Assembly: GCA_963693095.2 (NCBI GenBank)
Contig: OY843768.1
Span: forward strand, 1,248,001-1,312,000
Reading direction: 5' to 3'
Length of the DNA stretch: 64,000 bases
From: Cenarchaeum sp.
Lineage (GTDB): Archaea > Thermoproteota > Nitrososphaeria > Nitrososphaerales > Nitrosopumilaceae
Positions 1 to 64,000 of the stretch are shown here, piece by piece. The number at the start of each line of letters is the position of its first letter. Positions within the stretch are counted from its first letter, which is position 1. The notes under the pieces are model-generated. The model saw only the letters and a list, made by a program, of their open reading frames with translations, was not told the DNA's origin and ran no database searches. Made by a program: the position numbers and the translations under genes.

Positions 1-775
1 CTCCTCGTACATTGACTCATCGACGTCATGGTGGAGCGAGGCGAGGTTGCGCAGCGGCGCATACGTCCCGTCAGGCGTGAGGCGGTACACGCGGTACTCG
101 TCATCGAGCATGTACGTCACGTGGCGCGCGTCATAGTCGATTATCCCGTCAGCGTCATCATCGACGTGGCCCGCGAGGAGCGGGTATAGCGTTAGCGTGC
201 CGCCGTTGACCTCGATGCCGTGGCTCGGGTTTAGCGACTCGCCGGTGACGTGAACTCCGTGGTTGAAAAAGTTCTGCCACGAGTTGCGCCTGTCATCCCA
301 GACCATCGTCGAGACGACGTCAAACTCTAGTGGCTCGCGGAACGTGTGCGATATCGTGACAATGAGGCACTCGGCAGACGATCCTGGCATGCACTCGCCC
401 ACAACTGACTCTGCGCGCAGCGTCGTGATGTCAATGGCCGATGCCGGATCGTCAAGCGAGACTGTCGGCTCGCCGCTAAATGGCAGGCTTACCCTAATCT
501 CTGCCTGTGACTCTGAAAAGTGCTGCCCGCGCGTGAGGCCAAAGCCCAGGCCGACGTGGCGCACGTTCTGCGGTCCAGTGTCCTCAAAGACCTTGATGAC
601 AGCCGTGTTCTCCTGTCCCGTCTCCACCGTGATTAGCGGGAGCGGCGTGTAATAGTACTCGGCGTCTATCGTGTCGGCATTGTACGAGAATCCGCCTGCG
701 ACCCTGCGCACGCCGGTGCTGTCTATGCCTAGCGTCGGCGGCGTGCAGTCATCGCACCCGTCGCCTCCGCCGCCC
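1..775 (-). other. Thaumarchaeal-type conserved C-terminal domain (partial)
   Basis: GGGDGCDDCTPPTLGIDSTGVRRVAGGFSYN...YYTPLPLITVETGQEN...VFEDTGPQNVRH...CLIVTISHTFREPLEFDVVSTMVWDDRRNSWQNFFNHGVHVTGESLNP. Recognised from memory as resembling the C-termini of large Nitrosopumilus/Cenarchaeum surface proteins; not searched. Confidence 0.7.
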
Positions 776-2832
776 ACGCGTATGCCTTGCGAGCTGCCGC
801 CAAACTGCGTAAAGTGGGTCGTCCAGATGATAATGTCCCCGCCGTCGCGCACGTGGCACTCGGCTGCGAGTGCCTCTGTTTCGGCGTTGGCCAGGGTCGG
901 CGGCGTCTCGGCGTCAACGTCGCCGTCGCACTCGGATATCGCAGTAACTCGCAGGCGGTCCTCGCCGGCCACGTAGAGCGTGTCTCCGTCCTGGACTGCC
1001 TCCATGTAGAAGATGTGGTCTGACTCGGCCACGCCATCAAGCCTGATCAGGACAGGCTTTGAGAAGAGGACCGACTCGGCATCAGACCTCTTGCCCAGCG
1101 TGACTAGGGTCTCCGGCTCACTCGAGGTGATTGCGCGCGCTGCGCGCTCGTTGGCCGTCTGTGCTGCCTCGTCGGTGGCATCAAGTGCGCCGTGGTACGT
1201 CACGTCAGCAGGGCGGCGCGCGAGCTCGGCGAGGAGCGTGCCCGGCGAGACGCCCTCGTCTGTCATGCCGAGCGCGTTGATCACGGTCCCGCCAAATATC
1301 GTGACTTCAGAGCGCCCGAGGCGAATCGTGATGTCAGCGTCAATCGTGCTGTCATCGTCTGTCGTCATGGGATCGCCATCGTCCAAGAGGTCGTCGACTA
1401 GGAGCGTGACAGGCGCCCTGAGCCTGCCGCGATCATCAGGTGCGCTGATCGTGATGGGGAGCGCGCCGCTTGCCGGCACGACTAGAATGTCTGACTCGAT
1501 CTCCCCGTCCTCGTTGATCGTGACCTCTTGTGGCGCAAACGCGTTGCCGGCAAGGTCGGTGATGCCGGCCTCTATCGTGAATATGTACGTGCCCGGCTCT
1601 AGCGCGGGGTCGTACGTCGCAGTCGCGTCGCTTGCCGGAATCGGATCTTCACCCATAATTTGTTCCGGCCTGATCTCCAGCGCGACTGACGGGTCTGTGG
1701 CGCCATCTGGCGTAGAGTCGGCACTCGCAGAGACATCGCCCGTGCCGGTGACGTCCTCGGAGAAGGCGAACTGGACGGTATTTGATGACGTTCTCAGTAC
1801 GGCCTCGATGCTCGGCATGTTGACGTCCACGCGAACCGGCGGATCGTTGGTCTGGTCCTCTTCTGTGAACGTCGCCTCGTTGAGGATGCTCACGGCGTCA
1901 TAGGCTATGATGGTGAACTCTAGAGGCCCGTCGCGCGTCCTCGAGTCGGGCACGGCGATGTCAGCTGATGTGGCCGTCATGTCGCCGTTGCTCAGTGTCA
2001 TCGCCTCATTCTCCGCGTTTAGCGCCGTGATCCTCGGCGCCGCTCCAGCCGAGGACGGCTCGGAGAGCTCTAGCGTGACGCGTATTGCGTCACCCTCGCC
2101 GGCAATGTGCTCATAGGCTCCGGTCTTTGGCACCCTTGGCGTGGCGTCATCGAGGACCACTACTGTGAGCGTGACGATCTCTGGCGGCGCGCCGTCGGCG
2201 ACTCCGCGGACCGCCGTGCCGTCTGCCAGGGCGTTGGCCGCCGGTGAGGCGTCAGTAATATCAGATGACTCGCCTGCCGGCACACGGTATCCCACCGTCT
2301 GCGGGACAGCAGCCGTGTCAGCGGATCCCCATCCGGTCGCCGGCTTATAGTCTGATGGGAGCGTGAGCGTGAGCGTGAGGCCGTTTAGCGTGGCTGAGGC
2401 AAACGTTGTGCTTGCCCCGTCGAGCTCGGCGCTCGTGGGCGGGTCGGCGACCGAGTCATAGTGGAACCAGCGCGAGGCGTCAGGCCCGTCGTCGGCTGCG
2501 GTGACATCCTCGTCAAATGTCACCGTGAGCGTTCTCGAGCTCGCAGTGGCCGGCGTGAATAGCGGGGCCAGGCCGTCAGCAGCTATCACTGCGCGATCGG
2601 ATATGGGACGCATGTTGACCGTCGAGATTATGGGCGTCGCGCCGTCTGCCGTCGGCGCCCTGTACGCCACGAGAGGCATCGCGCCCGAGTTCGGCGCGAC
2701 GTATGCGAGGTATATCGTGTTGGGCTCGGGCTCGGCCCCATCTGAGCATATGTCGACCATGTTGACAAGCGCCTGTACCACGGGGTCTGCGCCGACCGTG
2801 CAGACTGCCGAGAGCGAGGCTGCAGCCGCGCC
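1..2832 (-). CDS. C-terminal continuation of the giant protein in a shifted frame, 3'-partial
   Basis: Hand translation: this frame is open from 2895 to 1 and reads GAAAASLSAVCTVGADPVVQALVN...ADGLAPLFTPATASSRTLTVTFDEDV...IAGEGDAIRVTLELSEP...ITDLAGNAF...WTTHFTQFG...CDDCTPPTLG...YEE, with the same domain types and codon style. It is absent from the ORF track, presumably because it has no in-window stop. Confidence 0.92.
799..1410 (-). other. ZU5/GAIN-like module with HFT motif, copy 2 (just before the C-terminal domain)
   Basis: ...FSKPVLIRL...IFYM...ECDGDVDAETPPTL...ECHVRDGGDIIIWTTHFTQFG, motif at 799-825. Confidence 0.6.
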
Positions 2833-5800
2833 GCGGTCCCGTCGGGATCCACGCCGATGAACCACTCGCCGGCAGCCGTCCTGCCCGCCGTGCTGTCATC
2901 GAGGACGATCCTGATGTACTCGCCAGAGGCTGCCCTGAACGTCGATGCCGTGAACGCGAGTATGTCCTGGAACATGACATTCACAAATGACGCGTTTGCC
3001 TCTAGCGTGTTGCCGCCGCCATCCTGCACGCTTGCGCGCGCGATGCTGACTGTGTGCGCCACGCCCTCGACTGCCGGCGGATCGACGGTGAGGACGACTA
3101 TGCTGTCTGACATGCCTGCCGTGGCGCCGGTGACGGTGAGTCCGGAGACTGTCAGGCCGGCGCGGTTCCTGATGCTGACATCCTCGTTGAACGTGATGTG
3201 GACCTCTGTTGCCGTGTCAAAGACTGCCGAGACTGCCTCTGGCGGGATGGCATCAGCGGCAGTCACGTCAGTCGTCGTCTCTAGCGCGTTGGCCATGTCG
3301 CCCTCCAGGGGCACGTCGGTGAGGCCGTTGGAAGGCATCGTAAAGCTCACAGTCGGCGTGGCGCCCGGTCCCCAGACGGGGAATCGAGCAACATTTGGAT
3401 CAACATAGCCGACATAGAACGGGCCGGTGAACGCAGATGACGCCAGTATCGTGTCGTCGTTCCTCTCAGTACTCATCGGTTGAGGCTCGTCAGCCACCGC
3501 GTTTACGGCCCGCCCTGCGCCATCTGGCGTCACCAGGTCAGATGACGGCACGTCAAGTGTCCACTCTGTCGCCGCCGTCGTGCCCTGGATGGGCTCGCTG
3601 AACGTCACGATGACGTGCGAGGCGTTGAACGTGCGCGCGACATACGTCGGCGGCGTGACGTCAGGCGCATAGTCTGAGGCAGAGCCGCGCTCGATGCTGT
3701 TGCCGTTGGCGTCAGTCACGCGCGTGGGCAGCGTGAGCGCGTACATTACGCGCTCTGTGGCCATGTCCGTCCTCAGCGTGAACGACTCGGCGTTAGCCAC
3801 ATAGTTGACCCTGAGCGAGCCGAGGCGCGGGTTTAGGCTGTTCGTTGGGAGCGTCGTGCCCAGGGAGCCGGCGTTGACAGGCTCGCTCATCGTGACTGTG
3901 ATCATGGTGAGGCTCGTGAACTCTATGGACTCGAGGCTCGGGCGTATGCGGTCCATTGCCGTGACCGTGACGGTGTCAAGCGCGTTGCCGGCTACGTCAA
4001 GGAGCACCGGCGGCGTGCGGGCAGTGAACTCGACTGCCGGCGTCGCCTCGCCGCCTGCAAGCGCGTTGGCCTGCGCGAGGTGCAGCGTGAACTCGTCCCT
4101 CAAGGATGTCGTCTGGTCGCCGACCTGCGCGGCATTGTCAGCAGCGAGGCTTGCTGCCTGCGTGCCGTCTACTGTCCAGTCCGTGTTTGACGTCGTTCCT
4201 GACACGTCCTCGCTAAAGGAGACGGTGAGGCTCTCGAGGCTCACCGTCTGGGCCGTGATCGTCGGCACCGTGCGGTCTATTGCGGGCCGCGTCACCGAGA
4301 GGGCCGTCTCGCGTATCTCGCTCATCGCGCCGCTCACCGCGCCGGTGGCCGACATTACAAAGGTAAAGTCAATGTCCGTCGTGCCGACCTCGACGGTGTA
4401 GCTCGCGGTCCACTCGTCTGTCATGCCGACGCGCGTCATCGTGACTGTATCAGCTGGGGCCGTCTTGCCCACAAAGAGGATCGTCGGCGGCTCGCTGGCG
4501 GACTCATCAAGCGTGACAGATACCCCGATCACGTCTCCGGCGCGCGCATGGCCTGTGTACGGCGCGGCGCGCGGTGTCGTGCCGTCAGACTCGAATACCG
4601 TGTACGATATCGCCGTCGCCATCGGCCCGTCAGTGGCCTCGGCCTCGATGCTCGCAGATACCGCGGCGCGCGCGTTGCCGGCCACGTCAGTGACGGCTGC
4701 AGGTATGGCGATCCTCCACGTGCCTGGCGTCGGCATCACCGTGAACGTTGCTGTCGCCGTGCGATCGCCGTCGTCGTGCGTAAAGGCCTGCCCTGTTGTG
4801 CTGCCGTTTGGCCTCGTGAGCGTTAGCGTGTCAGGTACGCCGTTGACCGGCTCGCTGAACGTGATCGTGAGCGTGCGGTCCGAAAAGGCCGCGTTCGCCG
4901 TCGGCGCGACGCCGTCAGCTGCGGTGACCTGCGCGCCAGAGGGCACGACGTTGCGGCCGGCGTCTGCGAGTCCCGTGCCCGTGTACCTGAGGACCGGCGC
5001 AAATGACGTGTCGGTGATCGTCGTGTACGTGATCGTCACGGTATTGCCCGAGACGTCTGCCAAGGAGATTGCGGCCGTCACGTCAGGCTCCAGCGTCGCG
5101 TCGATGGCGGTCCAGTCGCCTGCCTCAGTGGTTGCCGAGGACGGGAGCGACTCTGAAAGCGTGACTGTGAGCTCGCCTGTCGAGACCGTGGCCGCCGAGC
5201 TCAGGCTGGGCACGCTCGAGTCGACGGTGACGTTCGTGCCCGTCAGGTCGGCCTGCGTGAGCGCCGCCGTGTTGCCGGCAGTGTCGCGTATCGTCAGGCT
5301 GAACGCGAGCGTGCCGCTGGCGTCCGAGTCGAGTATAGTGCGCACGTACGAGTACGCGTTGGACGTGCCTGTGGCCACCGAGTCGGCGGCAGTTGACGTC
5401 CCAAAGAGCGCAATGTCGCCGACTGCCGTGAGGAGCGGCTCGCTGGCCGCGACGTTGACGCGGACGTCGTCATCGATGCCGGCGATCGTGCCCGATGCGG
5501 CGTCGCTGCCCTCGCCCTCGAGCCTCACAGTCGCAGTTACGGTCGCCGTCGGCCGTGCCGTGTCGATCAGGGGCAGCGTTACTGTCGTGCCCGAGGCCAG
5601 GCCGTTCATGTCCGTTATCCTCGCGACGTTGCCGTTGTTGCCGGTGACGAGTATGGAGATGTCCAGCGGGTCTGTGGCCGTGGCGCTGCCATGCTCTGCG
5701 TCCACGACATAATCGTGGCGCCACGTCGAGGCGTCAGCGTCGCCTGCGTCAGTCATGGCCGCCGACGTCGTGCCCCTGCCGGCCAGCGTTATCTGCGGCA

Positions 5801-8800
5801 CCGCAGTCACGTCGTCGTCGAGGTCGAGGGTTATGCGTATCGTGTCGCCTATTCCGGCCAGGTTGGCGTACGTGCCGGACTTGTCGGCCAGCGGCGAGCC
5901 GACCCTCACGGTGAACGTGAGCGTGGAGGCCTCTGGCGGGCTGTACGTCGCGTCCTCGGCGCTCGTGGTGAACGCGATGCCGGCCCTGTCGCGCAGCTCG
6001 GTCGGCAGCGTGACGGTGTGGACGACGTCGGCAGTCGCGCCGTCTACGAGCGTGAGTGTGATCGTGCGGGCCGTGGCGTCATAGTTTACCGGGTCTGTGG
6101 CCGCGAGCGGGACATCGTCCGGATCGGTGCCCGAGTCGGCACCGTCAGGCACAGTCACGTCATACGTGTAGCCCTCTATGGCAAAGTCGGCGCCGGCGAG
6201 TGGCTCAGACAGCGTGATGATGATCGTGTCAGCCTCGGTGAACGCCGCCGAGGAGATCGCCGGCGCCACGCGGTCTATTGTCGGCGGCATCGTCGAGGCC
6301 TCCGTCACCGTGCCCTCCGCACCCGTGTCGCCCGTGACAGTCGCGATGAACGTGAACGCGTTGCCTGTCGCTGCCGTGTCACCCGCGTCTGCCAGAACGG
6401 TGTACTCGGTCGACCAGTCCCTGGCGGTGCTGCCCTGCGTCATCATGACGGAGCTTGTGGAGCCCGCAAGGCGAACCGTGGGTGGCGTGGTGACAGTCTC
6501 GGAGAGCTCGAATGAGAGCACGATCACGTCACCGACGACGGCGTGGTTGTCGTACGGCGCTGTCTTTGCGTTGCCCGTGCTCTGGTCCTGCACCTCATAG
6601 GTGACTGTCGCCGTCGGCGCGTTGGTGCGAATGGCATCCACGGTCACCGTGGCGCGCGCGTTGTCAGAGGCGTCAGTGACCCTATCCGGTATCGTGACCT
6701 GCCACGTGCCGACTGCTATAGGCGTGCTGAGCGCTATTGTCGCAGTATTCGTGCCGTCGGTGTGGTCGACATTGCGCAGGACGGCCGAGCCGGTTGGCGG
6801 CCTGACGCTCAGCGTCGGCATTACGTTGTCGACCGGCTCGCTGAACGTTATGACTATCGAGTTGGCCACAAAGGCCGCCTCAGCCGTCGGGTTTATGCCG
6901 TCAGCGGCGGTGACGGGGCCGCCGCCAAGCGCGTTGCGCGCCGCATCAGCCGGCGCCCCAGAGGACGGCGCCGTGTACGTGACCTCTGGGCTGAACGACG
7001 TGTCCTCGATTCCCGTGTACGTGAGCGTCACGGTACTGCCCGAGACGTCTGCTGTGGAGATGGCGGCCGTCACGGCTGGATCCGTGTCAATTGCCGACCA
7101 GTGTCCGGCATCAGACGTTCCAGTGACTGCCTCGGAGAGCGTGACTGTGAGCGTCGTAGTCGATGCCGTTATCGCAGACACGATGGTCGGCGCGTCGGCA
7201 TCAACGGTGACGTTCGTGCCGTCCACGTCGGCCTGCGTGAGCGTCGCCGTGTTGCCGGCCCTGTCGCGCATCGTCAGGCTGAACGCGAGCGGGCCGTTGG
7301 CATCCGAGTCGAGTATCGTGCGCACGTACGAGTACGCGTTGGACGCGCCGGTATCCACCGAGTCGGCATCAGTCGACGTCCCAAAGAGCGCAATGTCGCC
7401 GACGGCCGTGACGAGCGGCTCGCTGGCCGCGACGTTGACGCGGACGACGTCGTCGATGCCGGCCAGCGTGACAGTGGACGAGTCTGTCGATGCGCCCTCG
7501 AGCCTCACCGTCGTGGTGAGCGACGAGGCCGCCGGTACCGTCCTGTCTATGGCCGGCCGGTCGACCACCAGCGTGCCCACGTGTCCGGTCGTGGCAGTTA
7601 TCGTGCCGGGGTTGTCACCGTCGGTGACCCTTATCGTAAAGTCCAGCTCGGCCGTCTCTGTCGTCGTGGTCGACACGGTGAGGTCATAGCGCCACGTCGT
7701 CGCGTCGCTGTCTGCCCTGTCGTCCATCGATATGCCTGTCGCGCCGGCTATGTCTATGGTCGGCGTGCCAGAGGCGTCCTCGTTGAGCGTGATGTCCAGG
7801 CGGATCGTGTCGTCGATGCCGGCAAAGCCTGCGGCGGCGCCAGTCTTTGCCGGAAGCGTGGCGGCACCGTCATGGACCGTGACGGATATCACCGTGGCCA
7901 TTGGCGGAATCGTGTCCCTCTTTGGCACCGTGACGTCGCTGTCGTCAGTCGCCGCGTCCCCGTCTGGGTTGGATATGGGCACGTACGCGTTAGTCGCCGT
8001 GTCCATGACTGCCGCATCGATGACGACCTTGTACGCCTCGTACGTGTCGTCTGCGCTCAGGCGGATCAAGACCATCGAGGCAGCAGAGTCCGAGGAGCCG
8101 GGCATGTATCTGACTCCGTCATCGTCGTATGTCGCGTCAAGTGTCAGCTCGGCCGAGCGCGTCGCAGGCTCGGTGAACCCATAAACCTCAAAGTTGGCCG
8201 CGACGACGGTGGACATGACAAGACCCTCATTGAACGTGAGCGTTATCGTGCGCGTCGTGTCATCGTGCGACGTGTTGGTGACTGTCGGCGCGACGGCGTC
8301 GACTGTCACGTTCGTGGCCGTCAGGTCGGTCTGCGTGAGCGTCGCCGTGTTGCCCGCAGTGTCAGTCATGGTCAGGCTGAACGCGAGTGGGCCGCTGGCG
8401 TCCGAGTCGAGTATCGTGCGATCGTACGTGTACAGGTTGGACCCGCCGTCCGTGACTGCGTCGGCGTTCACGCCGGTGCGGCCAAAGAAGACAATGTCAG
8501 TGGCGGCCGTGACGAGCTCCTCGCCGGCCGTGAGGCGCACGAGGACATCATCACCGATGGCCGCCACAGTGTTGGCTGCCGCGTCGGCGGACTCCCCTGA
8601 GAGCATTACGGCGGCGGTGAGCGCCGTGGACGTCGGCAGCACCGTGTCGATCTCGGGCAGCGTGACTGTCGTGCCCGAGGCCAGGCCGTTCATGTCCGTT
8701 ATCCTCGCGACGTTGCCGTTTGTGCCGGTGGCGACGATGAGGATGTCCAGCGGGGCCGACGTCGTGGTGCTTGCGTGCGTTGCTTCCACGACGTGGTCGT

Positions 8801-11800
8801 GTCTCCACGTCGAGGCATCAGCGTCGCCTGCGTTGGTCATGGCCACCGATGTCGTGCTCCTGCCTGCCAGCGTTATCTGCGGAGGCGCCGTCACGTCCTC
8901 GTCGAGGTCTAGGTCTATGCGTATCGTGTTGCCGATGCCGGCCAGGTTGGCGTTTGCGTCAGTCTTTGCGGCCAGCGGCGAGCCGGTCATCACGGTGAAC
9001 TCGAGCGTGGAGGCCGCTGGCGGGTCGTACGTCGCGTCATCTGTCCTCGTGGTGAACGCGATGCCTGCCCCGTCGACCAGCGCGGTCGGCAGCTCTACTG
9101 TGTAGGCCACGTCGGCAGTCGCGTCATCCTCGAGCGTTAGCGTGATCGTGAGGGCCGTGGAGTCATAGTTTACCGGGTTTGTGCTTGCCAGATCTATGAC
9201 GTCCCGATTGGCGTCCGCATCGTCCGGCTTGTTCGTGTTGTCAGGGGCAGTCAGGCCGTACGTGTATCCCTCTATGGTCGAGTCGGCTCCGGTGAGGACC
9301 TCAGAGAGCGTGATGACGATCGTGTCAGCCTCGGTGAACTCTGCTGAGGTTATCCTCGGCGCCACGCGGTCTATTGTCGGCGGCGTCGCCAGGGCCTCTG
9401 TCACAGGGCGCGTCGAGCCCGAGTTGCCCTCGATAGTCGCGGTGAACGTGAACGGGCTGCCGGCCGCTGCCGTGTCACCCGTGTCTGCTAGAACGGTGTA
9501 CGTCGCGCGCCACACGTCAGTCGAGCCGACCTGAACCATCGTGACGGGGTTTGTCGTCGCGCCCGCAAAGAGGACAGTCGGCGCCGTGGTGACGGACTCT
9601 GATAGCGTGAGCGAGAGCCTGATCATGTCGTCGACGCGCGCGTGGTTTGCGTACGGCGCGGTGCGCTGCGTTGTGCCGTCAGACTCGAATACCGCATAGG
9701 CTGCCGTCGCAGTCGGCGCCGCGCTGCGCTCGGCAGTGAGACTCGCCGATGCTGCGGCGCGCGCGTTGCCGACCACGTCGGTGACTGCTGGCGGTATGGT
9801 GACCGTCCACGTGCCGGCCTCTATGTCCAAGTCGGTGATGGAGCTTATTGTCACAGTCGTCGCGCCGTCGGTGTGGTCGGCCGTGCGCGAGACTGCCTCC
9901 GTTGTTGGTGGCTTTACGCTCAGCGTTGCCGGCACGTTGTAGACGTTCTCGTCGAACGTTATGACTATCGAGTTGCCCGAGAACACGGCGTCTGCTGTCG
10001 GCTCGACGCGGTCGATTATCGGTGCCGTGGCCGGATCGGCGTTGACGGTGCGCGTCGAGCCCGTGTCGCCCGTGAGCGTCGCGTCAAACGTGAGCCTGCC
10101 GTCTATGCCCGATGCGACAGTCGTCGTCTCTACCTCGTATGACCTCTGCCACTCGTTGGTGTCGCCGACGCGCACCATGTTGCCGCCTGTTGCCGTCCTG
10201 CCCACAAAGGTGACCCTCGGGGCAGTCTCGACGTTCTCGTCGAGCGTGAGCGAGAGGATGATCGTGTCGCCTGCGCGCGCGTGGTTCTGGTACGGCGAGG
10301 GCCTCGCGTTGCCGGTGTCCCGGTCCTGCACCTCGTAGGCGACTGTTGCCATGGGGGCCGCCCTGCGCTCGGCCATGACGCTAGTCGTGGCGCTCGGGTT
10401 GGTCGCCACGTCGGTGACTGTTGTCGGTATGGTGACTGTCCACGTGCCGACTGTTATCGTCGGGGTGAGGTCTATTCTCACAGTCGCCTCGCCGGTGTTG
10501 TGGCGTGGGGTCTCGGTCGTGGTCATGGGCGTGGTCGTAGGCTCCGTGACGCCCATTGTCGTCACGCCGGTGACAGGCTCGCTGAACGTTATGACGATAG
10601 AGTTGCCCGAAAAGGCCGCCGTGGCAGTCGGCGCGACGCCGTCAGTGGCGGGTTGCTGGCTGCCGGACACCAGGGCGTTGCGGCCGGCATCGACTATGCC
10701 CGTGCCCGTGTACTCTACTCTCGGCGCAAATGACGTGTCTGCGATCTTCGCGTACGTGAGAGTCACCGTGCTGCCCGAGACTACCGCCGAGGAGATCATT
10801 GCAGTCGTCGAGCCATCCACTGCAGACCACATGCCGGCTCCCGTGACTGCCTCAGATAGCGTGACTGTGAGCGTCGTGGTGGATGTAGTCGCGGCAGACA
10901 CTATGGTCGGCGCCGTGGTGTCGACTGTCACGCGCGCCCCCGCGTTGCCGTGCGTCAATGCGGAGGCCGCCGCGTTGCCGGCCCTGTCGCGGAACGTGAC
11001 GGTGAACTCGATATCGCCGTCGGTGTCATCCGCCACTATCGTGCGCACGTACGCGTACGCGTTGGTGCCGGTGCTCTCGACAGAGTCGGCGTCCTCTGCG
11101 GCTGAGCCAAAGAGATCAATGTCGGCGACCCGCGCGTCGAGCGCCTCGCTTGCCGTGAGCGTCACGCGAAGCTCGTCGCCGATGCCGGCCGTGGTGACTG
11201 TCGCAGAGTCAGACGATGCGTCCTCGAGTCTCACGCTAGTCGTCACCGTCGCCGTCGGCGCTGTCCTGTCTATGGTCGGCCGACTCGGGCTCAGCGTGCC
11301 CACGTGTCCGGTCGTCGCCGTTATCATGCCGGAGGTTGTGCCGTCGGTGACCGTTATCGTAAAGGCCAGCGCGCCCTCGGTCGTCGTGCCTGACACGTCG
11401 AGGTCATAGCGCCATGTCTTTGCGTCGCTGTCTTCACCGTCATCCATATTCTCGCCAGTCTCGCCGGCCACGTCTATGGTCGGCGTGCCAGAGGCGTCCT
11501 CGTCGAGCGTGATGTCCAGGCGGATCGTGTCGTCGATGCCGGCAAAGGTCGCATACTGGCCGGTCTTTGCCGTGCTCGCGCCCGGCGTGCCGTCGTGGAC
11601 GATGATGGATATCTCTGTTGCCCGCGGGGCAGTCGTGTCGTCCTTTTCGACGTCGATGTCGCTGTCGTCAATCAGGGGGTTGTCATCAGGGTTGACTATG
11701 GGCACGTACGGGTTCGCTTTTGTGTCCGTGACCGAGTCCGTTATGATGACCTTGTAGTCGTCATGGTCGTCGTCGGCGGCGAGCCTGATCGAGACCGTCG

Positions 11801-53800: not shown

Positions 53801-56800
53801 TGCCAGAGGCATCCTCGCCGAGCGTGAGCAGGAGGCGGATCGTGTCGCCGGCCGCAGCATGGAGCCTCGAGGCGCCGGACTTTAGCGTTAACAGGTTCAG
53901 CGCGTCAGCGCCGCCCGTGTTGGTGTCATCGTACACCTCAAAGGATATCGCAGTAGCCCTCGGCGGCGCGTCATAGGTGCCCGTGGCGGCCGCGCCGGCG
54001 TACGCGTTGCCGGCCAGGTCAGTCAGCGTGGTCGGCAGCGCCACAGAGTACGCCCCCGACGCGCGTGTGGCATCGAGCACGGTGACGACCGCGCCGGCAG
54101 GCATGGTGTTCCTGTCCATCGCATCAGACGCGCCTGACGGCGGCGTGACTCGCAGCATGGCCGGAGAGACGACTGGCTCGCTGAACGTGAGGACGATCGA
54201 GTAGCCCGAGAAGGCAGTCGTCGTGAGCGTCGGCGCCGTGCGGTCTATGGTCGGCACGTCCGCCGTGCTGCCGCTGGCCATCGGGGTCTCCTGCGTTATG
54301 GGCTCAGGGTTGCCCTCCACTGTGATCGAGAACGTGAACGGCGCAGTGGGCGAAGTCTCGACTGTCGTGGTGCCCACGATGATGTCGTGGTGCCACGTCG
54401 TGTCCAGCGCGTCGCCATTGTTGCCCATCGTCGTCGCCGTCGGCGTCCTGCCCGTGCCGGGCACCGTCACTGACGGCGCGGCGGTGACGCCCTTGTCGAG
54501 CGTGAGCACGAGGCGGATCGTGTTGTCTGCCATCGCGTGGAGCTCCGAGGCGCCGGACTTTATCGTGGACAGGTTCAGCGTGTCGGCCGTTCCGGAGCCG
54601 TCAGTGTCGGTGTCGCCGTACACCGCAAAGGATATCACAGTCGCCATCGGCGGCGTGCTGAACTCGGCGCCTCCCGGCACGGCCGTGTTGGTGGCCAAGG
54701 GGTTGCCCACGCCCACCACGTCTTTTATCCCGCTCACGGCCAGGGCGTACGTGCCCTCGGCCACATGGGCGTCCAGCGTGAAGCGCAGGCCGGTGTTCGG
54801 CCCATAGCCCTCGTCGGCTGGGTCAAAGAGGTCGGCGTCGTCATCGACGCTGCCCGTGGTGACCTTTGTGCCGGCCATGGTGGAGACCGTCAGGCGCTCG
54901 ATGCCGCGGCCGGGATGCGCGACGGCCTCGTCAAAGAGGACCTCGACGGTGTCTGACGCCGTAAAGCGGCCCACCGCCGGAACCGGCGGCGCGCCGTCGG
55001 CGGCCGCGACTGGGCTGCCGACAGTGGAGCCCACGGGGTTGCCGGCCCTGTCGGCCAGGCGCTCCTGCTCCCCCACGAGCGTCGCCGAGTCGTCGTACAG
55101 GACGCCCGGCGTCGAGGCCGCCGACGGGAGGGCGTCGTGGTGGAGGATTATCCTGTCCGTCCCGGCCTGCGGGATCTCGACTGTGGCCGACGGCCCGTCG
55201 GAGCCCACGGTCACGTCATTGACTGTGATGCTGCCCCCGTCCGAGAGCGACCAGTCGTCCGCGCGCGCCGTGCCCACGAGCCGCTCGGCGAAGCGGATAT
55301 CCGTATGTGTCAGGCTCTGCGTCTCGGCCGTGAACGCCGGAGGCGTGGTGTCCTCCACGGCAGACGAGGTCCCGTCGGCCAGCGCGTTGGCCGCCGGCGA
55401 GGTGTCGGCTATCGAGTTCGCCCTGGCGTCCTCGCCGTCCGGCACGTTTAGCGTGAGCGTGATCGTGGCGAGGTCGAACGAGGTGGAGTAGCCGCCCCTG
55501 CTATCTGGCGCCGTGATCGTGGCGGTCTGCGCGCCCAGGTTATAGGCGACATTCGAGGCGGCCAGCGTGGCGTCGGCCGTGTCGGCGGCGTTCCTCCCCG
55601 AGAACGTCCAGTCGGCGGCCGTCGGGAGCGTCTTGCCTGTGGCCTGCGAGACGGGCTCGGAGAAGGTCACCGTGTGGACGGCGGTGAACAAGCTGTCCGT
55701 GGAGTCAGTCAGCGGCCTCTCTACCGTAAACGTCGGAGGCGCGCCGTCAGTGGCCGCAGTGTCGCGCGTGGCCACCTCGGATGTGCCCTCGGCGAGGAAC
55801 CCGCCAGTCGGCCTGTCGTCAGGCTTTGTGTACGCGACGTTCGGCGTGGCCGCCGTCGAGGAGAGCGCGTCGTGCGTGATGAGGAGCTGCTTTGCAGTCG
55901 AGGCGTCCGGTATCTCGGCCGCGGAGCCCACCGTGGCCGCAGTCGTCGTCGCGACGCCGCTGAGCGCAGTCGCCACTCTCGACGTCGTCAGCGCCACGTT
56001 GTCCGCCATGCTGGCCGCGTCGTTCTCGGTGACCGTCCAGTTCGTCACGTCAAGCGTGCCCGAGAGATCGCCGCCGGTAAAGGTCACGAGCGTCGTCGTG
56101 AGGCTCGCAGTGGCGGCCGTGAAGGGGCCAGCCGTGGCGGCGATGCCATCTGTTGCGATCGCCGACGCGCCGTCCGGAATCGGGTTGTTATTGGCATTGT
56201 CGAGTGACATTCTGCTGCCAAACAGCGCATCGGCGAGATAGTTGGAGGCGGGGCGGCTATAGGTGACCGTGGGCATGTCGTCCACGCCAAAGGTCGCCAC
56301 GGTGAGCGTAAAGACCGTGCGTATAACGCCGGCCTGCGTAACGTTGGCCGTGGTCAGGGCGCTTGGCGTGGCGCCGTCCACGTCCCAGTTCCCCACGACT
56401 CGCCAGGGGGCGTGATTATTGTGTGAACTCGTGTTGTGTATCGCCTCGGTGAACGTGACAGCTATCGTCGCCGTCGTCAACGTGCGCGCCGTGAACGTCG
56501 GCGGGGCCTTGTCGGTGACGGCCGTGGCAGATGTCGGGCTGCCGGCGGCGGCCGCAAGGCGGAGCTCTGCCGAGTTTCGGAGCGTGTCATCGCCCGTCGA
56601 CGGGCGCGTGTAGACCACGCTCGCCGCGGTGATCTCCGCCAGGTCGCCGTCACCGTCGGGGTCGGCCAGGCTGGTGTAGGGGCGCGCCGGGTCTAGCGTG
56701 AGGACGATCTCTGTGGCGTCAAAGGGCGAGGACGGCACCGCAGTCCTGACTGTCGAGCCGGCGACTGCCCACTCGGAGCCGGCAGTCACGCCAAAGACGG

Positions 56801-59800
56801 CCTCGTTGAACGTGATCCTCACGGTCTCCGCCGAGGTCAGCTCGGCGCTGAACGTCGGCGCAGTCGTGTCCGCCGCGTACGTGGCAGTCACCGGGGCGGC
56901 GGCGAGCCCGTTGTCCGAGGCGTCGTCTATGCCCGTGGGCAGCGCGACAGAGTACTCGCCGGCAGCCGGCGAGGAGATTGTGACTGTCGCCCTGTCGGTG
57001 CCGTCGGTGTGGTCTGCGTTCAGCGCGCCGCCGGGCGTGACGGCCAGCGTGGCCGGCACTCCGTTGACCGGCTCGCTGAACAGGATGACGATCGCGCTGC
57101 CCAAAAAGGCCGCCCTGGCCGTCGGCGGCGCGCCGTCGGCCACTGCCGTGGCCGTGGCCGTCATCCCGGCTGCGGCAAGGTCGTTGCCGGCGCCGTCGGC
57201 GAGCGTGTTGGACGCAGTCGCCGAGTCCGCCGCGGGGCGCGCATAGACCACGCTCGCCGTCGTGATCTCCTCGAGCGGGCCTGCACCGTCCGGGTCGGCC
57301 AGTGCCGTGCCCGCGCGCGAGGCCGACAGCGTGAGGACGATCTCGCCGGCCGAGGACGGCGAGGAGGGCGTGACCGCGCTGACTGTCGAGCCGGCGACTG
57401 TCCACTCGGCAGGCGCCGTCGTGCCGTCGACATCCTCGGTAAACGTGATCGTCACGGTGGTCGCAGACGTGAGGCTTGCGCTGAACGTCGGCGGAGTCGT
57501 GTCCGCCGGCGCCGCGTACGTCGTCATCACCGTGGCGCCCGAGGCGAACGCGTTGCCGGCGAGGTCGGCCAGGCCCGCCGGCAGCGTGACGGTGTGCTCG
57601 GCGGCGGCCGCGTCGGCGGCCAGCGTGAGGGTGATCGTGCGGGCCGCCGCGTCATAGACGATGGGCCTCACCGGCGTGTCGGCTGCCAGGTCCTCCGTGG
57701 CCAGCGAGACGGGGCTGCCGCCGGCGCTCACGGCGAACGTGTAGCCCTCCACCTGCGTCGGCGTGTTGAGGAGCGCCTCGCCCGCCGTGATGACGAGCGT
57801 CCTGGCCGCCGTGAACGCCGCAGTCGCCGTCGGCGCGGTCAGGTCTATGGCCGGCAGGGTGAACGTGAGGGCGGCGGACTCCGTTATGGTGCCCGTGTTG
57901 GGCGGCGTCGCCGCATCGGCCACGGCGATCGAGAACGTGAACGCCACGTCGTCCGTCTCGGCAGTCATGCTCGTCACTGCCATGTCGTGCACCCACGTCA
58001 GGCCGTTGGCCTCCGAGCCGGCCACCATCGGGGCAGCAACAGGCGTCCTGCCCGCGCCGGGCACCGTCACCATCGGCGCGCCGGGAACCGTCTCGTCGAG
58101 CGTGAGCTTTAGGCGGATCGTGTCCCCGTCGCTTGCGCGCAGCGCGCTCTCGCCGGACTTTAGCGTGCCGGTGCTCGCCGTGCCGTCGCCGTACACCTCG
58201 AAGGCTATCGAGGTTGCGGCCGGCGCGGCCGCGTCGTACGTCGCGGCCACCGTGGCGCCCGAGGCGAACGCGTTGCCGGCGAGGTCTTCCAGGCCCGCCG
58301 GCAGCGTGACTGTGTGCTCGGCGGCGGCCGCGTCGGCGGCCAGCGTGAGGGTGATCGTGCGGGCCGCCGCGTCATAGACGATGGGCCTCACCGGCGTGTC
58401 GGCTGCCAGGTCCTCCGTGGCCAGCGAGACGGCGCTGCCGCCGGCGCTCACGGCGAACGCATAGCCCTCCACCTGCGTCGGCGTGTTGAGGAGCGCCTCG
58501 CCCGCCGTGATGACGAGCGTCCTGGCCGCCGTGAACGCCGCCTCGGCCGTCGGCGCGGTCAGGTCTATGGTCGGCACGTCCGCCGTGCTGCCGCCGGCCA
58601 GCGGGGTCTCCTGCGTTATGGCCGCAGGGTTGCCCTCCACTGTGATCGAGAACGTGAACGGCGCAGTGGACGAAGTCTCGACAGTCGTGGAGCCCACGAT
58701 GATGTCGTGGTGCCACGTCGTGGTCAGCGCGTCGCCTGCGTTGCCCATCGGCGTCTCCGTAGGCGTCCTGCCCGTGCCGGGCACCGTCACTGACGGCGCG
58801 GCGGTGACGCCCTTGTCGAGCGTGAGCACGAGGCGGATCGTGTTGTCGGCCATCGCGTGGAGTTTCGAGTCGCCGGACTTTATCGTGGACAGCTCCAGCG
58901 TGTCACCCGTGCCAGAGCCGTCCGTGTCTGTGTCGCCGTACACCGCAAAGGATATCGCAGTCGCCATCGGCGGCGCAGCCGGCGTGTACGTCGCAGTGCC
59001 AGCCTCGCCGAAGAGAACCCTGTTTGCCGTCGGCGTGGCGAGGTCGTCGATCGTGTTGTCGACATTGACGGTGTATGTCCTGCCAGGCTCAGCGTTTGCG
59101 CCCAGCTCTAGCATGTACGTCGCTGGAGCCTCATAGTCGACGCCGGTCACGCCGAGGTTGCCCTCCGTGGCAGTCACGGTCCAGCCGGTCGTCCCTGAGG
59201 AGGAGACGTCAGTCACGGCCTCGCCAAAGGTCACAGATAACATGTTGGCCGCCGTGAACGTGGCGAGCTCTATCGTCGGCCTTAGGCCGTCAGTGGCGCG
59301 GACGTGGGGCTCAAGCGTCGAGAGCATGGCGTTGCCAAGCCCGTCGCCCAGGCGCACCTGTTCCGAAGCTAGCATAGTCGAGGCGTCGTACGAAAAGACC
59401 GGCGTCGAGCCCGTGGAGGCGAGCGTGGGGTGGAGGACATCGACGGAGGGAAGAGACGTCAGGGTGCGTATGGTCGCGGTGGTCGAGACGATGCTGCTGA
59501 TTGTCGCCGTGTTGCCGTTATCCGTGAGCGACCAGTCGGCCACGCGCATCGTGCCGCTGACGGGCTCGCTAAAGGTGATCCTCGAGCCATCCAGTCGCAC
59601 CGTCTCGACCGTGAACGTCGGCGGCGCCTTGTCGACAAGTGCCGTGGCCGTCCCCATGCCGCCTGCCGTCGAGGCAAGGTGGTTGTCCGCGCCGTCCTGG
59701 ATCGTGTTGGTGCCAGTCAACGGGCGCGTGTACGTGACGGCCGAGGCGTCCAGGGTGCCCAGGGCGGTGCTCCCACGAGCGGCGGCGAGCGTGATAAAGA

Positions 59801-62800
59801 GCTCGTCGGTGGCCGTGGTGATCGACAGGTCGCCGGTCTCGGCCCCGTCGGTAGCCGTCAGCGAGAGCGAGGCCGGCTGGACGCCGTCAAAGCTCCACTC
59901 GCCACGCGCCGTCGTGCCGTCGATGCGCTCGTCAAAGACGATCCTCACGGTGCTCGCAGACGTGAGCTCGGCGCTGAACGTTGGCGCCGTGTTGTCTACC
60001 ATCACGTAGCTCGCATTGGCGTCTATCGTGTTGGCCGTCGGCGTGACCTTGTCCATGATCCCGTCGGCGGCGTTTACCGTGTACTCGACGCCGAAAGTCG
60101 CGGTGGAGACGGTGAGCGTGTACGTGTCGTCGTCATCAAAGTCCACCATCGACACCGTGAGGCTGGCAGAGTCGGCCACCACTGACCAGCCGGTTCCAGC
60201 CATCGTCGACGTGTCCCTGCTCACAGGCTCGGTGAACGTGACAGATATCGTCGTCGCGTCGGTGAACGAGGCCGACTCGATGGACGGGGAGACCCCGTCG
60301 GCGGCCACGACGGGGCTGGCGCCCGTCGGGCGCAGGTCGACTCTGTCGGAGTCGAGCAGCTCGCCGGCGGCGGCCGTGTACGCCACGTTCGGCGTCGCGT
60401 CGTCGTCCTGCGCGTTGGCAGACGTCAGCGTGAGCGTGATCGTCTCGACTGCCGTCGTTATCGTGACCGTGCCGCCTGCCTCCGTCGCGCCGACGGCAGA
60501 GACGGACTCGACTGGCATGCCGTCGACTGTCCACTCGGAGGCCGCCGTGCTGCCGTCGAGCGCCTCGGAGAACCTGACGATGACTGACGTTGCCGTGTCG
60601 AGCGTCGCCGTGAACGTCGGCGCCGCGTTGTACGTCGCCATCTCGGTCTCGCCGGCGTCTATCGTGTTGGCCGTCGGCGTGACCTTGTCCATGATCCCGT
60701 TGGCCACGTTTATCGTGTACTCTACGCCGTCAGTCGCGGCTGAGACGGTGAGCGTGTACGTCGCCGGAGCCTCATAGCCGACGCCGGTCACGCCAAGGTT
60801 GCCCTCCGTGGCAGTCACGGTCCATTCGGCCGTCCCTGACGAGGAGACGTCAGTCACGTCCTCGGCGAACGTGACAGATATCGTCGTCGCGTCGGTGAAC
60901 GAGGCTGACTCTATGGACGGGGAGACCCCGTCGGTGGCCACGACGGGGCTGGCGCCCGTCGGGCGCAGGTCGACGTCATCGGAGTCGAGCAGCTCGCCGG
61001 CGGCGGCCGTGTACACCACGTTCGGCGTCGCGTCATCGTCCTGCGCGTTGGCAGACGCGAGTGTGAGCGTGATCGTCTCGACTGCAGTCGTTATCGTGAT
61101 CGCCGCGTCGTCGACCGTCGTGGACGTGCCGTCCGTGATGGACTCGGGCGCCTCGCCGGCGACGCTCCACTCCGTGCGCGCCGTGCTGCCGTCGAGCGCC
61201 TCGGAGAACCTGACTATGACTGACGTCGGCGTGTCAAGCGTAGCCGTGAACGTCGGCGGCGCGTTGTACGTCGCCGTCTCGGTCTCGCCGGCCGCTATCG
61301 TGTTGGGTGAATCGGCCTCGTCCATGATCGTGCCAGGCGCGCTGACCGTGTACTCTACACCATCAGTCGCGGCGGAGACGGTGAGCGTGTACGTGTCGCT
61401 GTCATCAAAGTCCGCCATCGACACCGAAAGGCCGCCGTTCACCGACCAGCCCGTGGTAACCTCGGTCACGTCCTCGGCGAACGTGACAGATATCGTCGTC
61501 GCGTCGGTGAACGAGGCTGACTCTATGGACGGCTTGATCTTGTCGGTGGCCACGACGGGGCTGGCGCCCGTCGGGCGCAGGTCGACGTCATTGGAGTCGA
61601 GCAGCTCGCCGGCGGCGGCCGTGTACGCCACGTTCGGCGTCGCGTCGTCGTCCTGCTCGTTGGCAGACGCGAGCGTGAGCGTGATCGTCTCGACTGCCGT
61701 CTCTATCGTGATCGCGCCGTCGCCGATCGTCGTCGACGTGCCGGCCGTGACGGACTCGGGCTCCTCACCGGCGACGGCCCACTCTGTGCGCGCCGTGCTG
61801 CCGTCGAGCGCCTCGGAGAACCTGACGGTTACTGACGTCGCCGTGTCAAGTGTCGCCGTGAACGTCGGCGCCGCGTTGTACGTCGCCATCTCGGTCTCGC
61901 CTGTGTCTATCGTGTTGGGCGTCGTGGCTCTGTCCATGATCCCGTTGGCCGCGTTTATCGTGTACTCTACGCCGTCAGTCGCGCCAGAGACGGTGAGCGT
62001 GTACGTCGCCGGAGCCTCATAGTCGACGTCGGTCACGCCAAGGTTGCCCTCCGTAGCAGTCACGGTCCATTCGGTCGTCCCTGACGAGGAGACGTCAGTC
62101 ACGTCCTCGCCAAAGGTCACCGATATCGTCGTCGCGTCGGTGAACGAGGCCGACTCGATGGACGGGGAGACCTCGTCGGCGGCCACGACTGGGCTGGCGC
62201 CCGTGGAGGCCAGCACGGCGCTATCAGCGTCGGCGATTAGCGGGGTTGCAGCCGGCACCGTGTACGCCACGTCCGGCGTCGCGTCGTCGTCCTGCGCGTT
62301 GGCAGACGCGAGTGTGAGCGTGATCGTCTCGACTGCAGTCGTTATCGTGATCGCCGCGTCGTCGACCGTCGTGGACGTGCCGTCCGTGATGGACTCGGGC
62401 GCCTCGCCGGCGACGCTCCACTCCATGCGCGCCGTGCTGCCCTTTAGATCCTCCGAAAAGGTCACAGTCACTGACGTCGGCGTGTCAAGCGTCGCCGACG
62501 CCACTGTCGGCACCACGCCGAGCGTCGCGCCACCAGGCACCCCCGTGGTCAGGCGCAGGCGGACGTCGCCATGGTCCACTATCCCGCTCACGGCAAAGAC
62601 ATAGTCGCCCCTGGGCACCGACGCGTTCAGCGTGAAGCGCAGGCCTGTGCCTGCGGCATAGCCCGCGTCGACTGGGTCAAAGACGTCAGCGGCGTTATCG
62701 ACGCTGCCCGTGGCGATCGCATTGGCCGAGAGCTGCCGAATCCCCGGCACGAAGACATGCAGGCGCTCGCCTGTAGGCTGCATGGCGGGATCGTCAAAGA

Positions 62801-63998: not shown

Positions 63999-64000
63999 AG

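Follow-up and report, generated by a model that had tools for sequence, protein, structure and literature searches.

The 64,000-nucleotide stretch of DNA analysed here (the window) corresponds to C1:1248001-1312000 of the 2,003,945-bp, two-contig genome (G000; 99.55% complete) of a Cenarchaeum-type archaeon, and is filled by part of one giant gene on the minus strand, predicted to encode a secreted protein of about 25,500 residues built from immunoglobulin-like (Ig-like) domains. On that strand, a scan for open reading frames (ORFs) found a frame of 20,456 codons, open over 2628..63998, that runs off the 5' edge of the window, and a second frame of 955 codons at 1..2865 that is open at the 3' edge, the two together amounting to about 21,300 codons. 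Chance cannot produce such a long frame, and the other frames of such sequence hit stops every few tens of codons. An earlier note on this DNA, which did not name the strand, had claimed, from the window-filling frame and its single frameshift, one gene longer than 64 kb, a claim that holds in light of an intact orthologous frame; the protein is indeed giant, but its size was understated, as the gene is about 20% longer than the window shows. In the whole genome, with positions outside the window given in continued window numbering, the main frame measures 24,633 codons from stop to stop (2631..76529) and the downstream frame 1,061 codons (-287..2895). From its ATG at 76268 to the final stop at about -290 the gene spans 76,559 nt, that is 24,478 codons before the frame break and 1,041 after it, or about 25,519 in all, and the product is predicted to have a mass of ~2.59 MDa and an isoelectric point of ~4.05 if the break is read through. 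From the 5' end to the 3' end of the gene, the features are as follows.

Window-equivalent 76284-76348 (C1:1324284-1324348), minus strand, outside the window: promoter region, with a TATA-like box and a poly-G element.
64001-76268, minus strand, outside the window: 5' part of the gene, with the likely ATG at 76268, the predicted signal peptide MAQLSQSRLPSMGIAMLAALMLLAGLGGSDAAAQ and the opening ~4,090 repeat residues.
2631..63998, minus strand: in-window part of the main frame, the rest of which lies outside the window at 64001-76268 (C1:1312001-1324268).
53311..55751, minus strand: copy one of the largest internal DNA duplication (2,449 bp, 97.2% identity), the other copy being at window-equivalent 64624-67061.
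19866..20441, minus strand: segment of 192 residues with no match, even weak, to the repeat hidden Markov model (HMM) or to the C-terminal module.
16986..17852, minus strand: internal non-Ig insert, a diverged copy of the first sub-domain of the C-terminal module.
2833..2835, minus strand: frame break, with one G absent on the coding strand relative to the orthologue.
2631..2832, minus strand: out-of-frame end of the main frame, ~68 nonsense codons rich in Arg, Ser and Pro, with a stop at 2628-2630.
1513..2592, minus strand: last three Ig-like domains, in the downstream frame (residues 102-461; E 1.3e-16 to 5.5e-06).
799..1515, minus strand: first sub-domain of the C-terminal module (P0001 residues 1-239), beta-rich with one helix, placed by alignment.
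1..798, minus strand: in-window part of the core and helical tail of the C-terminal module (P0001 residues 240-601), placed by alignments and an AlphaFold2 model.
Down to -287, minus strand, outside the window: end of the C-terminal module, with the stop at about -290 (C1:1247710-1247712).

Extension of the contig on both sides, which the earlier note had advised, found the likely start, a predicted signal peptide and the stop, and no C-terminal membrane anchor. The likely start is the first ATG followed by a signal-like segment, codon 87 of the main frame, and reads MAQLSQSRLPSMGIAMLAALMLLAGLGGSDAAAQ. Residues 8-32 are the sole strongly hydrophobic, signal-like segment that a hydrophobicity scan detected in the whole protein, and an Ala-Ala-Ala-Gln motif comes after them; both the start and this hydrophobic segment are conserved in the orthologue, the two proteins having the MAQLS start in common. 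At the other end the protein finishes in an acidic tail, and zero hydrophobic 19-mers (mean Kyte-Doolittle value above 1.6) occur in the last 1,061 residues. Proteins sorted by archaeosortases (PGF-CTERM / PEF-CTERM) carry a C-terminal motif followed by a hydrophobic transmembrane helix; no signal of this type was found here, where the last 1,061 residues contain no hydrophobic helix and have no NCBIfam match.

That the frame represents a single real gene is supported by comparison with an orthologue in an independently assembled relative, in which a frame of 25,697 codons runs uninterrupted (25,609 aa from its ATG, against ~25,519 here) and is 95% identical at the site of the break. The two genes begin and end alike and have the same upstream neighbours, up1 and up2, and colinearity extends through the initial 13.4 kb (88% identity), a central stretch of 7.6 kb (94%) and the final 14 kb (91-93%). 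In all, 66% of the gene falls into blocks that are 85% or more identical to the orthologue, the remaining middle being reshuffled or diverged. Median identity among internal protein matches is 32-44%, and internal DNA repeats of 150 bp or longer that reach 90% identity number only 7 in the whole gene. Sequence is also shared with giant genes elsewhere in the genome: C1:546060-548081 has 2,025 bp in common with gene positions 23364-25385, counted from the ATG, at 95.9% identity, and C1:561890-563433 has 1,562 bp in common with positions 27341-28896 at 91.2%, which suggests gene conversion or cassette exchange between paralogues.

The body of the protein is best described as a chain of diverged Ig-like beta-sandwich domains of the Big_5 type, a description that the profile searches support. 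The protein was scanned as seven pieces, and the Pfam family Big_5 (PF13205), which the earlier note had singled out for such a scan, exceeded its curated cut-off of 23.6 bits in six of them (49.2, 74.5, 116, 37, 154.7 and 73.5 bits), falling just under it, at 22.5 bits, in the 965-aa piece from the downstream frame. Individually significant Big_5 stretches number 23, most of the 188 domains being too diverged to be recognised singly. The same scan returned a weak CopC match, one SWM_repeat stretch, and nothing enzymatic. An HMM iterated on the protein itself (102 positions) found 185 domains in the main frame, which they cover to 85% at a median spacing of 116.5 aa, and 3 more in the downstream frame. 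The earlier note had counted about 190 Ig-like domains in the window; the nature of the body stands, whereas the count becomes 156 detected by the HMM inside the window (153 + 3) and 188 in the whole gene. Among the 21 internal gaps of at least 60 aa, 19 match the repeat HMM weakly (E 3e-06 to 3.1), several as a sub-type of their own, one (16986-17852) is the copy of the first C-terminal sub-domain, and one (19866-20441) is matched by neither HMM nor module, so that a fair estimate of the likely total would be ~205 beta-sandwich domains.

Each domain spans 90-130 aa, most are 30-40% identical to one another, and their consensus, D..aPT...i.vtFSE.V...tltL...g..Yt...i.D.AGN, is what we take to be the Big_5 pattern. 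Searched against all PDB sequences (E <=0.01), the repeat profile matched five, namely the surface-layer (S-layer) protein 2ra1, two Sap and two CopC sequences, with 2ra1 (E 3.8e-7) and Bacillus anthracis Sap (8rw9/8rwf, E 3.6e-3) as the best solved relatives. No thaumarchaeal S-layer protein was among these five, the presence of such an entry in the searched set being unconfirmed. Because of the Pfam match and of these profile matches to solved S-layer and CopC beta-sandwiches, the repeat is expected to adopt a beta-sandwich fold.

In composition the body is rich in Thr (16.3%), Ala (15.0%) and Asp (8.1%) and poor in Lys (0.6%) and Cys (0.1%), and before the break the protein counts 2,959 Asp+Glu vs 937 Lys+Arg. 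N-X-S/T sequons are depleted about 3-fold over the same part, with 49 observed vs 155 +/- 11.5 in 50 shuffles. Many archaeal surface proteins are N-glycosylated, and this depletion is hence unexpected, although part of it may come from Asn residues fixed in the conserved GN motif. The ratio of nonsynonymous to synonymous substitution rates (dN/dS) is 0.58-0.63 in three repeat blocks vs 0.29 in the C-terminal module; sequence comparison thus shows a fast-evolving and recombining body and a constrained module.

No Pfam or NCBIfam model matches the last 601 residues of the protein. Its overall architecture is an Ig-like chain, two copies of a beta-rich domain of ~200 aa, one internal and one near the end, and then a conserved core of ~360 aa. 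The internal insert is 31.7% identical to the first C-terminal sub-domain over 202 aa (E 8.5e-15) and matches positions 7-210 of the module profile (E 6.6e-18). Nine giant frames in this genome end in the module (48-76% identity), and a full-length module is present in all four other genomes of the genus; from the fragmented same-genus genomes, only frame pieces of 99-2,317 codons were recovered. Two genomes of other genera carry giant frames that end in the module or its core: G062 has 11 module copies, capping frames of 1,846-9,068 codons, and G020 has frames of 5,130-8,617 codons. The giant-gene families, as far as can be judged from these frames, are thus not confined to the genus of the window. 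More widely, the central core was found in 40 of the 121 genomes and 14 of the 27 genera searched in the Nitrosopumilaceae, mostly on proteins of 260-640 aa with N-terminal hydrophobic segments. Small signal-bearing homologues (L033, L034, L035 and L036, in G112, G031, G014 and G021) are 259-636 aa long; G021 has tandem copies of the core, and the 259-aa homologue also has an NCBIfam WING-49 domain. In a library of 1.84 billion proteins, the core was matched by 813 representatives at E <=0.001. A separate homology search, confined to proteins of 1,053-3,005 aa and thus below the size of giant relatives, returned 21 proteins, all unnamed or labelled "hypothetical". Conserved motifs of the module are CDDCTPPTLG, EYYYTPLPLITVETG, GQHF, HTFREPL, WDDRRNSWQNFFNHG, GESLNP and DxDGDGxYDYDxRHVTYMLD, and those that define the core (CxxC-TPPTLG, EYYYTP(L/Y)PL, GQHF, HTFRxPL and WDxxRNxWQN(F/Y)(F/Y)NHG) are all present in P0001.

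An AlphaFold2 model of the core and tail, built on a 55-row alignment, has a mean pLDDT (the predicted local distance difference test score) of 84.7, and above 90 over residues 20-200, and consists of a beta-sandwich followed by two long helices; on this model, the core is an Ig-like beta-sandwich to which no ligand is assigned. The model of the whole 601-aa module (17-row alignment) is poor, with a pLDDT of 60.5 and values of ~75-88 over residues 60-240, and the Foldseek matches of that first model were discarded as meaningless (template-modelling score, TM, <=0.15). For the core model, the top Foldseek matches are the glycan-binding regions of SrpA (5eq3) and Hsa (6x3q), with E 7.6e-5 and probability 1.0, and the adhesin lectin domains of FmlH and CfaE are listed as well. 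Searched against PDB sequences, the C-terminal profile found nothing below E 0.7, and no SrpA or Hsa sequence match. The best feature score in the ESM Atlas, 0.76 to an unnamed cluster, gave no lead, and a complex prediction with two copies of core and tail scored 0.00 in a run made without controls, which is evidence neither way.

The earlier note had judged the DNA to be probably archaeal, and the host is confirmed as a Cenarchaeum-type ammonia-oxidising archaeon. Its 16S ribosomal RNA scores 1457.6 bits with the archaeal model vs 1098.5 with the bacterial one, an archaeal AmoA is present (389 bits), and subunit A of topoisomerase VI is encoded near the giant gene. The orthologue-bearing relative and the window genome are classed in the same genus, to which a Cenarchaeum sp. 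record also belongs; NCBI taxonomy places Cenarchaeum in Nitrososphaerota, and the closest relatives of the C-terminal domain come from records titled Cenarchaeum sp., Thaumarchaeota archaeon and Nitrosarchaeum sp. A halophile origin, suggested by the acidic and Lys-poor composition of the protein, was rejected because the ordinary ORFs of this genome, taken as a crude set, are not acidic in this way (D 5.5%, E 5.6%, K 3.2%, R 7.9%) and because the organism is a Cenarchaeum-type thaumarchaeon. Association with a sponge is taken only from what the genus Cenarchaeum is known for (available text of PMC6790972), and the only hint of the host-symbiont interface that the earlier note had proposed is the genus name that the relatives bear.

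The gene belongs to a large family. Frames of at least 1,500 codons number 22 in this genome and sum to 19.5% of it, or ~18.5% by our own arithmetic once one antisense artefact and two Lys-rich frames of different composition are removed. The giant frames rich in Thr, Ala and Asp and poor in Lys range from 3,062 to 16,166 codons and include, on C1, those at 50437-83904, 337113-385487, 493137-508940, 515953-608165, 756958-775962, 1348731-1362071, 1545613-1563813 and 1644576-1655069. At 515953-608165 there are two overlapping plus-strand frames (515953-564450 and 564210-608165, of 16,166 and 14,652 codons), which, judging from their sequence, are probably one gene of ~30,800 codons split by a -1 type break inside one Ig domain near 564318-564354; if so, that gene exceeds the one in the window in length. 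The relative, with 1.6 Mb, has 4 matches to the C-terminal module, and the window genome, with 2.0 Mb, has 9 loci ending in it; much of the difference in genome size may be due to giant genes. Separately, a 1,701-codon frame for a secreted protein occurs twice near the start of C1 (1277-6379 and 7518-12620) and again, cut off, at its end (1971240-1976240), and these repeats may form a tandem array spanning the circularisation point or mark an unresolved assembly end.

In the promoter of the window gene, a TATA-like box rich in A and T, ATTATGCTTATAAC, lies ~16-29 nt from the ATG on its upstream side, and further upstream there is a C7 A5 T G18 element, whose G18 lies at C1:1324331-1324348 (window-equivalent 76331-76348). 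The orthologue keeps this layout of poly-G and then TATA, with G19. Long homopolymer tracts number 15 in the genome, and six of these are poly-G (G14-G21 on the coding strand) located 33-102 nt upstream of the signal-peptide ATG of a giant gene, each adjoining, on its upstream side, a TTATATAC-type box ~22-32 nt from the ATG. These six tracts lie at C1:337054-337067, 493170-493190, 515985-515998, 766200-766215, 776010-776027 and 1324331-1324348. By our own arithmetic ~0.01 of the 15 tracts would be expected at such positions by chance; the g3064 and g3062 pair, however, are recent duplicates and not independent. At the three loci that can be compared, the relative retains the poly-G tract, each one base longer. 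A homopolymer tract placed before a promoter is the look of promoter-tract phase variation in bacteria. The tracts may be, as judged from their sequence and position, a phase-variation switch (available text of PMC2831843 for general background) or G-quadruplex elements, or may in part reflect homopolymer bias of the assembly.

Directly upstream of the gene are three ORFs of 377, 338 and 370 aa (up1-up3; L003:12530-15988, which is C1:1324533-1327988, minus strand), none with a Pfam or NCBIfam family. up1 and up3 are ~30% identical to each other, up1-up3 belong to families with multiple copies at C1:1.90-1.95 Mb that are not beside the other giants, and an element of ~80 nt (C-run, A-run, G-run, CGxGATCAGGGCCTGATCG) occurs in two nearly identical versions, one on either side of the three; the orthologue, too, has up1 and up2 upstream of it. 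They may be a mobile or repeated cassette, to judge from these sequences; a dedicated export or assembly system was considered and rejected, given the lack of a family, the copies elsewhere and their absence beside the other giants. The window's other ORFs of at least 300 aa, 24 in number, are all on the plus strand and each at most 685 aa long. The six of them that were scanned match zero Pfam families, and for this reason the plus-strand ORFs look like antisense artefacts of composition, as expected opposite a gene rich in GCN, ACN, GTN and GAC codons. There is no tRNA gene and no Rfam family in the 64-kb window, where G+C is 63-69% throughout.

The explanation that we favour, with somewhat better than even confidence, is that the gene encodes a secreted Ig-fibre of ~25,500 residues, capped by its C-terminal module and acting as an adhesive or tether, and that the frame break is not the functional state. 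By analogy with other giant proteins of this kind, the most likely role would be that of an extracellular adhesive fibre or tether. The protein would be exported through the Sec pathway, with its signal peptide cleaved after AAA, and the acidic chain, largely unglycosylated at Asn, would form a rod- or thread-like fibre. At ~4 nm per Ig-like domain, such a fibre could reach ~0.8 micrometres; the 0.7-0.8 micrometres and the role as tether, filament or capsule that the earlier note had put forward are likewise predictions. The conserved C-terminal module would hold it at the cell envelope or bind a ligand, so that the fibre might tether the archaeon to a surface, to other cells nearby or to extracellular matrix in a sponge host; with their diverse domains, the paralogues would offer varied binding surfaces, and the poly-G tracts upstream of the promoters may switch single members of the family on or off.

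Several observations count against parts of this proposal. In the assembly, the copy in the window has a broken frame and would not include the C-terminal module, and the public sequencing runs that cover the break are silent on this strain, 40 of their 40 listed variants being the allele of the relative. The middle 49 kb are only patchily colinear with the orthologue, and part of that reshuffling could reflect assembly choices in one of the two genomes. The adhesive role is drawn from analogy with giant Ig-repeat adhesins and goes no further than that analogy, and the cleavage site of the signal peptide was judged by eye. As for the core, its Foldseek TM-scores are merely 0.2-0.36, with a root-mean-square deviation of ~14 A, and a search independent of Foldseek (VIA) returned V-set Ig domains and carbohydrate-binding modules with Z 7.5-8.6, which is background level. 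The occurrence of the core on small secreted proteins of many Nitrosopumilaceae, moreover, implies that it is not specific to host-associated life; together with the conservation of the module, these small carriers favour a general job in the envelope, such as anchoring, at least as much as a host-specific ligand.

The frame break consists of one missing G at window 2833-2835, where the sequence reads GGGACC-GCGG vs GGGACCGGCGG in the orthologue (L006), whose frame is continuous through the site. An alignment of 1,202 nt around the break has 1138 identical positions (95%) and this single gap, the ~370 nt on its upstream side show no difference from the orthologue, and the 1,041 codons after the break are still open and 84-90% identical to it. 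Programmed frameshifting was considered and rejected, as the sequence there (GGGACCGCGG) is not of the slippery kind and the orthologue, with its additional G, simply stays in frame. In the public runs X1, X2 and X4, from two studies, contigs contain the additional base at full depth, and X6 does not cover the site; since these runs carry the alleles of the relative, they sample the lineage of the relative and cannot test the break in the strain of the window. Among the 14 public runs listed for this sequence, none is of RNA. None of the public runs contained more than 0.68 of the sampled words, their listed contig pieces are mostly 200-1,050 bp, too short to speak on contiguity, and contig "joints", with short sides of 20-56 nt, were left out of the analysis. 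In the population related to this strain, as seen in the contigs of these runs, indels occur as compensating pairs or triplets. At the three loci where poly-G tracts can be compared, each tract falls short of its counterpart in the relative by exactly one base (G18/G19, G16/G17 and G18/G19), and such uniform shortening hints at systematic under-calling of G runs by the assembly. From the sequence, we consider that the missing G would be either an assembly consensus error or a very recent lesion, and that the intact state would be the functional one.

If the loss of the G is real, the gene could be a fresh pseudogene, giving a product of 24,546 residues that lacks the C-terminal module and the three Ig domains before it, or no useful product at all. 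We consider this rather unlikely, even though it is the alternative that fares best. The assembled sequence does have the break, in a context of merely GG and no long homopolymer; another of the giant genes here likewise has a -1 type shift within a domain, as expected if giants were being lost; and the C-terminal module is matched only 4 times in the relative, compared with 9 loci ending in it here (11 matches, two of them internal and partial). On the other hand, the identity of the ~370 nt upstream, the open and 84-90% identical frame after the break and the dN/dS of 0.29 in the C-terminal module indicate that any lesion must be very recent, and the three poly-G tracts, each one base shorter here, show the pattern that G-run under-calling would give.

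The main rival on function is a protective or ion-concentrating coat, in which acidic megadalton threads would form a hydrated polyanionic layer outside the S-layer. The low isoelectric point, the excess of Asp and Glu over Lys and Arg, and an N-terminal signal without an anchor are consistent with it, and a family taking up ~18-19% of the genome suggests a bulk structural product. There are precedents, too: halomucin, a secreted protein of 9,159 aa, was proposed to form a water-rich capsule (available text of PMC1544339), and the available text of Moeller et al. (PMC6790972) describes acidic S-layer proteins that concentrate ammonium and an expanded S-layer set in C. symbiosum. The body, however, is made of folded Ig-like domains and not of mucin-like low-complexity stretches, its 3-fold depletion of N-sequons is unlike a glycan-carrying mucin, and a fast, cassette-shuffling body with variable promoter tracts fits interaction surfaces better than a bulk polyanion. 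We therefore regard a coat as doubtful.

A bolder version of the adhesive fibre would have ~18% of a 2-Mb genome devoted to Ig fibres, maybe the largest archaeal proteins, switched by slippage of the G14-G21 tracts and by cassette exchange at the interface with a host. We put this forward as a speculation that is improbable as a whole; if true, it would mean that an archaeon varies the phase of its surface structures, by analogy with what contingency loci do in bacterial pathogens.

A host-evasion decoy, in which the Ig-like array would mimic animal surface proteins and avert recognition or phagocytosis by sponge cells instead of serving attachment, appears quite improbable to us. The fast evolution of the body and the record titles of the relatives, mainly Cenarchaeum and other thaumarchaeal metagenome-assembled genomes (MAGs), would suit it, and roles of this kind have been proposed for eukaryote-like and surface proteins in work on sponge symbionts (available text of PMC6697440 and PMC7848895); Big_5-type domains, however, are modules of prokaryotic S-layers and adhesins and not of the animal Ig superfamily. 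Finally, a false joining of shorter repeat-protein genes, via their repeats, into one giant frame can be all but set aside: the gene is repetitive, with a 2.45-kb internal duplication at 97% and 2.0 kb at 95.9% in common with another giant, its middle is not colinear with the orthologue, and public contigs of the region are short and have many "joints", a sign that short-read assemblers struggle here, but most repeats are merely 30-40% identical in protein, no more than 7 DNA repeats of 150 bp or longer reach 90%, a separately assembled genome has a gene of near-equal length with the same ends and the neighbours up1 and up2, and there is no internal signal peptide, stop or C-terminal module, bar one partial copy of the first C-terminal sub-domain.

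As a class, giant surface proteins built of Ig repeats are already known. What is new in the fibre gene described here, as far as the literature searched goes, is the size in an archaeon, the thaumarchaeotal host, the C-terminal module and the promoter tracts. The available text of a giant-gene survey (West-Roberts 2023 preprint) lists few archaeal proteins above 10,000 aa and none from Thaumarchaeota, and giants of Thaumarchaeota also go unmentioned in the available text of a separate survey of huge proteins and of the papers on sponge thaumarchaea. Our literature search found no description of giant genes in Cenarchaeum or Thaumarchaeota; the 2006 genome paper of C. symbiosum and its supplements, which lay outside the search, may list some. 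The sequences themselves are already in public records, unnamed or as "hypothetical". Giant genes are usually lost or fragmented in metagenome assemblies, and gene callers and short-read MAGs miss most of this biology. For a chemolithoautotroph that grows slowly, a family near one-fifth of the chromosome represents a very heavy outlay, which suggests that the cell surface is the main arena of adaptation in this lineage. The undescribed module, widespread in Nitrosopumilaceae, and the fast-evolving, cassette-exchanging repeat body provide handles for further work, and the poly-G promoter tracts could be the first clear contingency loci in archaea.

Among known systems, the giant bacterial adhesins with BIg repeats, SiiE, LapA and MpIBP, likewise combine many tandem Ig-like domains as an extender with a distinct C-terminal module, and are also extracellular, acidic and cysteine-poor. 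They depend, however, on type I secretion, with repeats-in-toxin (RTX) repeats, a C-terminal signal and an outer membrane, whereas the archaeal protein has a Sec-type N-terminal signal and its host no outer membrane; no RTX repeats (HemolysinCabind) were found by Pfam in the seven pieces or in the C-terminal module (E <=0.01 or <=1). The archaeal giant is 3-10 times the length of these adhesins, and its C-terminal module is unrelated to theirs. SwmB of marine Synechococcus (~10,800 aa) is likewise a giant surface protein made of one type of repeat, and the earlier note had likened the repeats of the window to it; the likeness turned out to be weak, as the SwmB family SWM_repeat (PF13753) matches one stretch, at 31.8 bits (cut-off 27), in one of the seven pieces and among ~188 domains, the body being Big_5-like and not built of SWM repeats, and there is no link to motility here. 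The nearest solved relatives of the repeat, the S-layer proteins 2ra1 and Sap, form a lattice from few domains, against ~200 in a row here. In the Siglec-like regions of the serine-rich-repeat adhesins SrpA and Hsa, a V-set-like beta-sandwich sits at the business end of a fibre, as the core might, although TM-scores are 0.2-0.36, the VIA Z of ~8 does not exceed that of generic V-set Ig domains, and there is no sequence similarity.

Two further systems are compared by description. Halomucin (Hmu1) of Haloquadratum walsbyi, 9,159 aa long and called the largest archaeal protein in 2006 (available text of PMC1544339), is also giant, secreted and acidic, with an N-terminal signal, a presumed extracellular layer and smaller paralogues in its genome. 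It is mucin-like, however, with domains for glycosylation and sulfation, whereas the protein of the window is built from Big_5-type domains, poor in sequons and ~2.8 times longer. The Chlorobium epibiont of "Chlorochromatium aggregatum" has a 36,805-aa protein and related giants (West-Roberts 2023 preprint, available text); although these are bacterial and made of different domains, they too stand in a small genome, that of an obligate symbiont, and are presumed to act in cell-cell contact.

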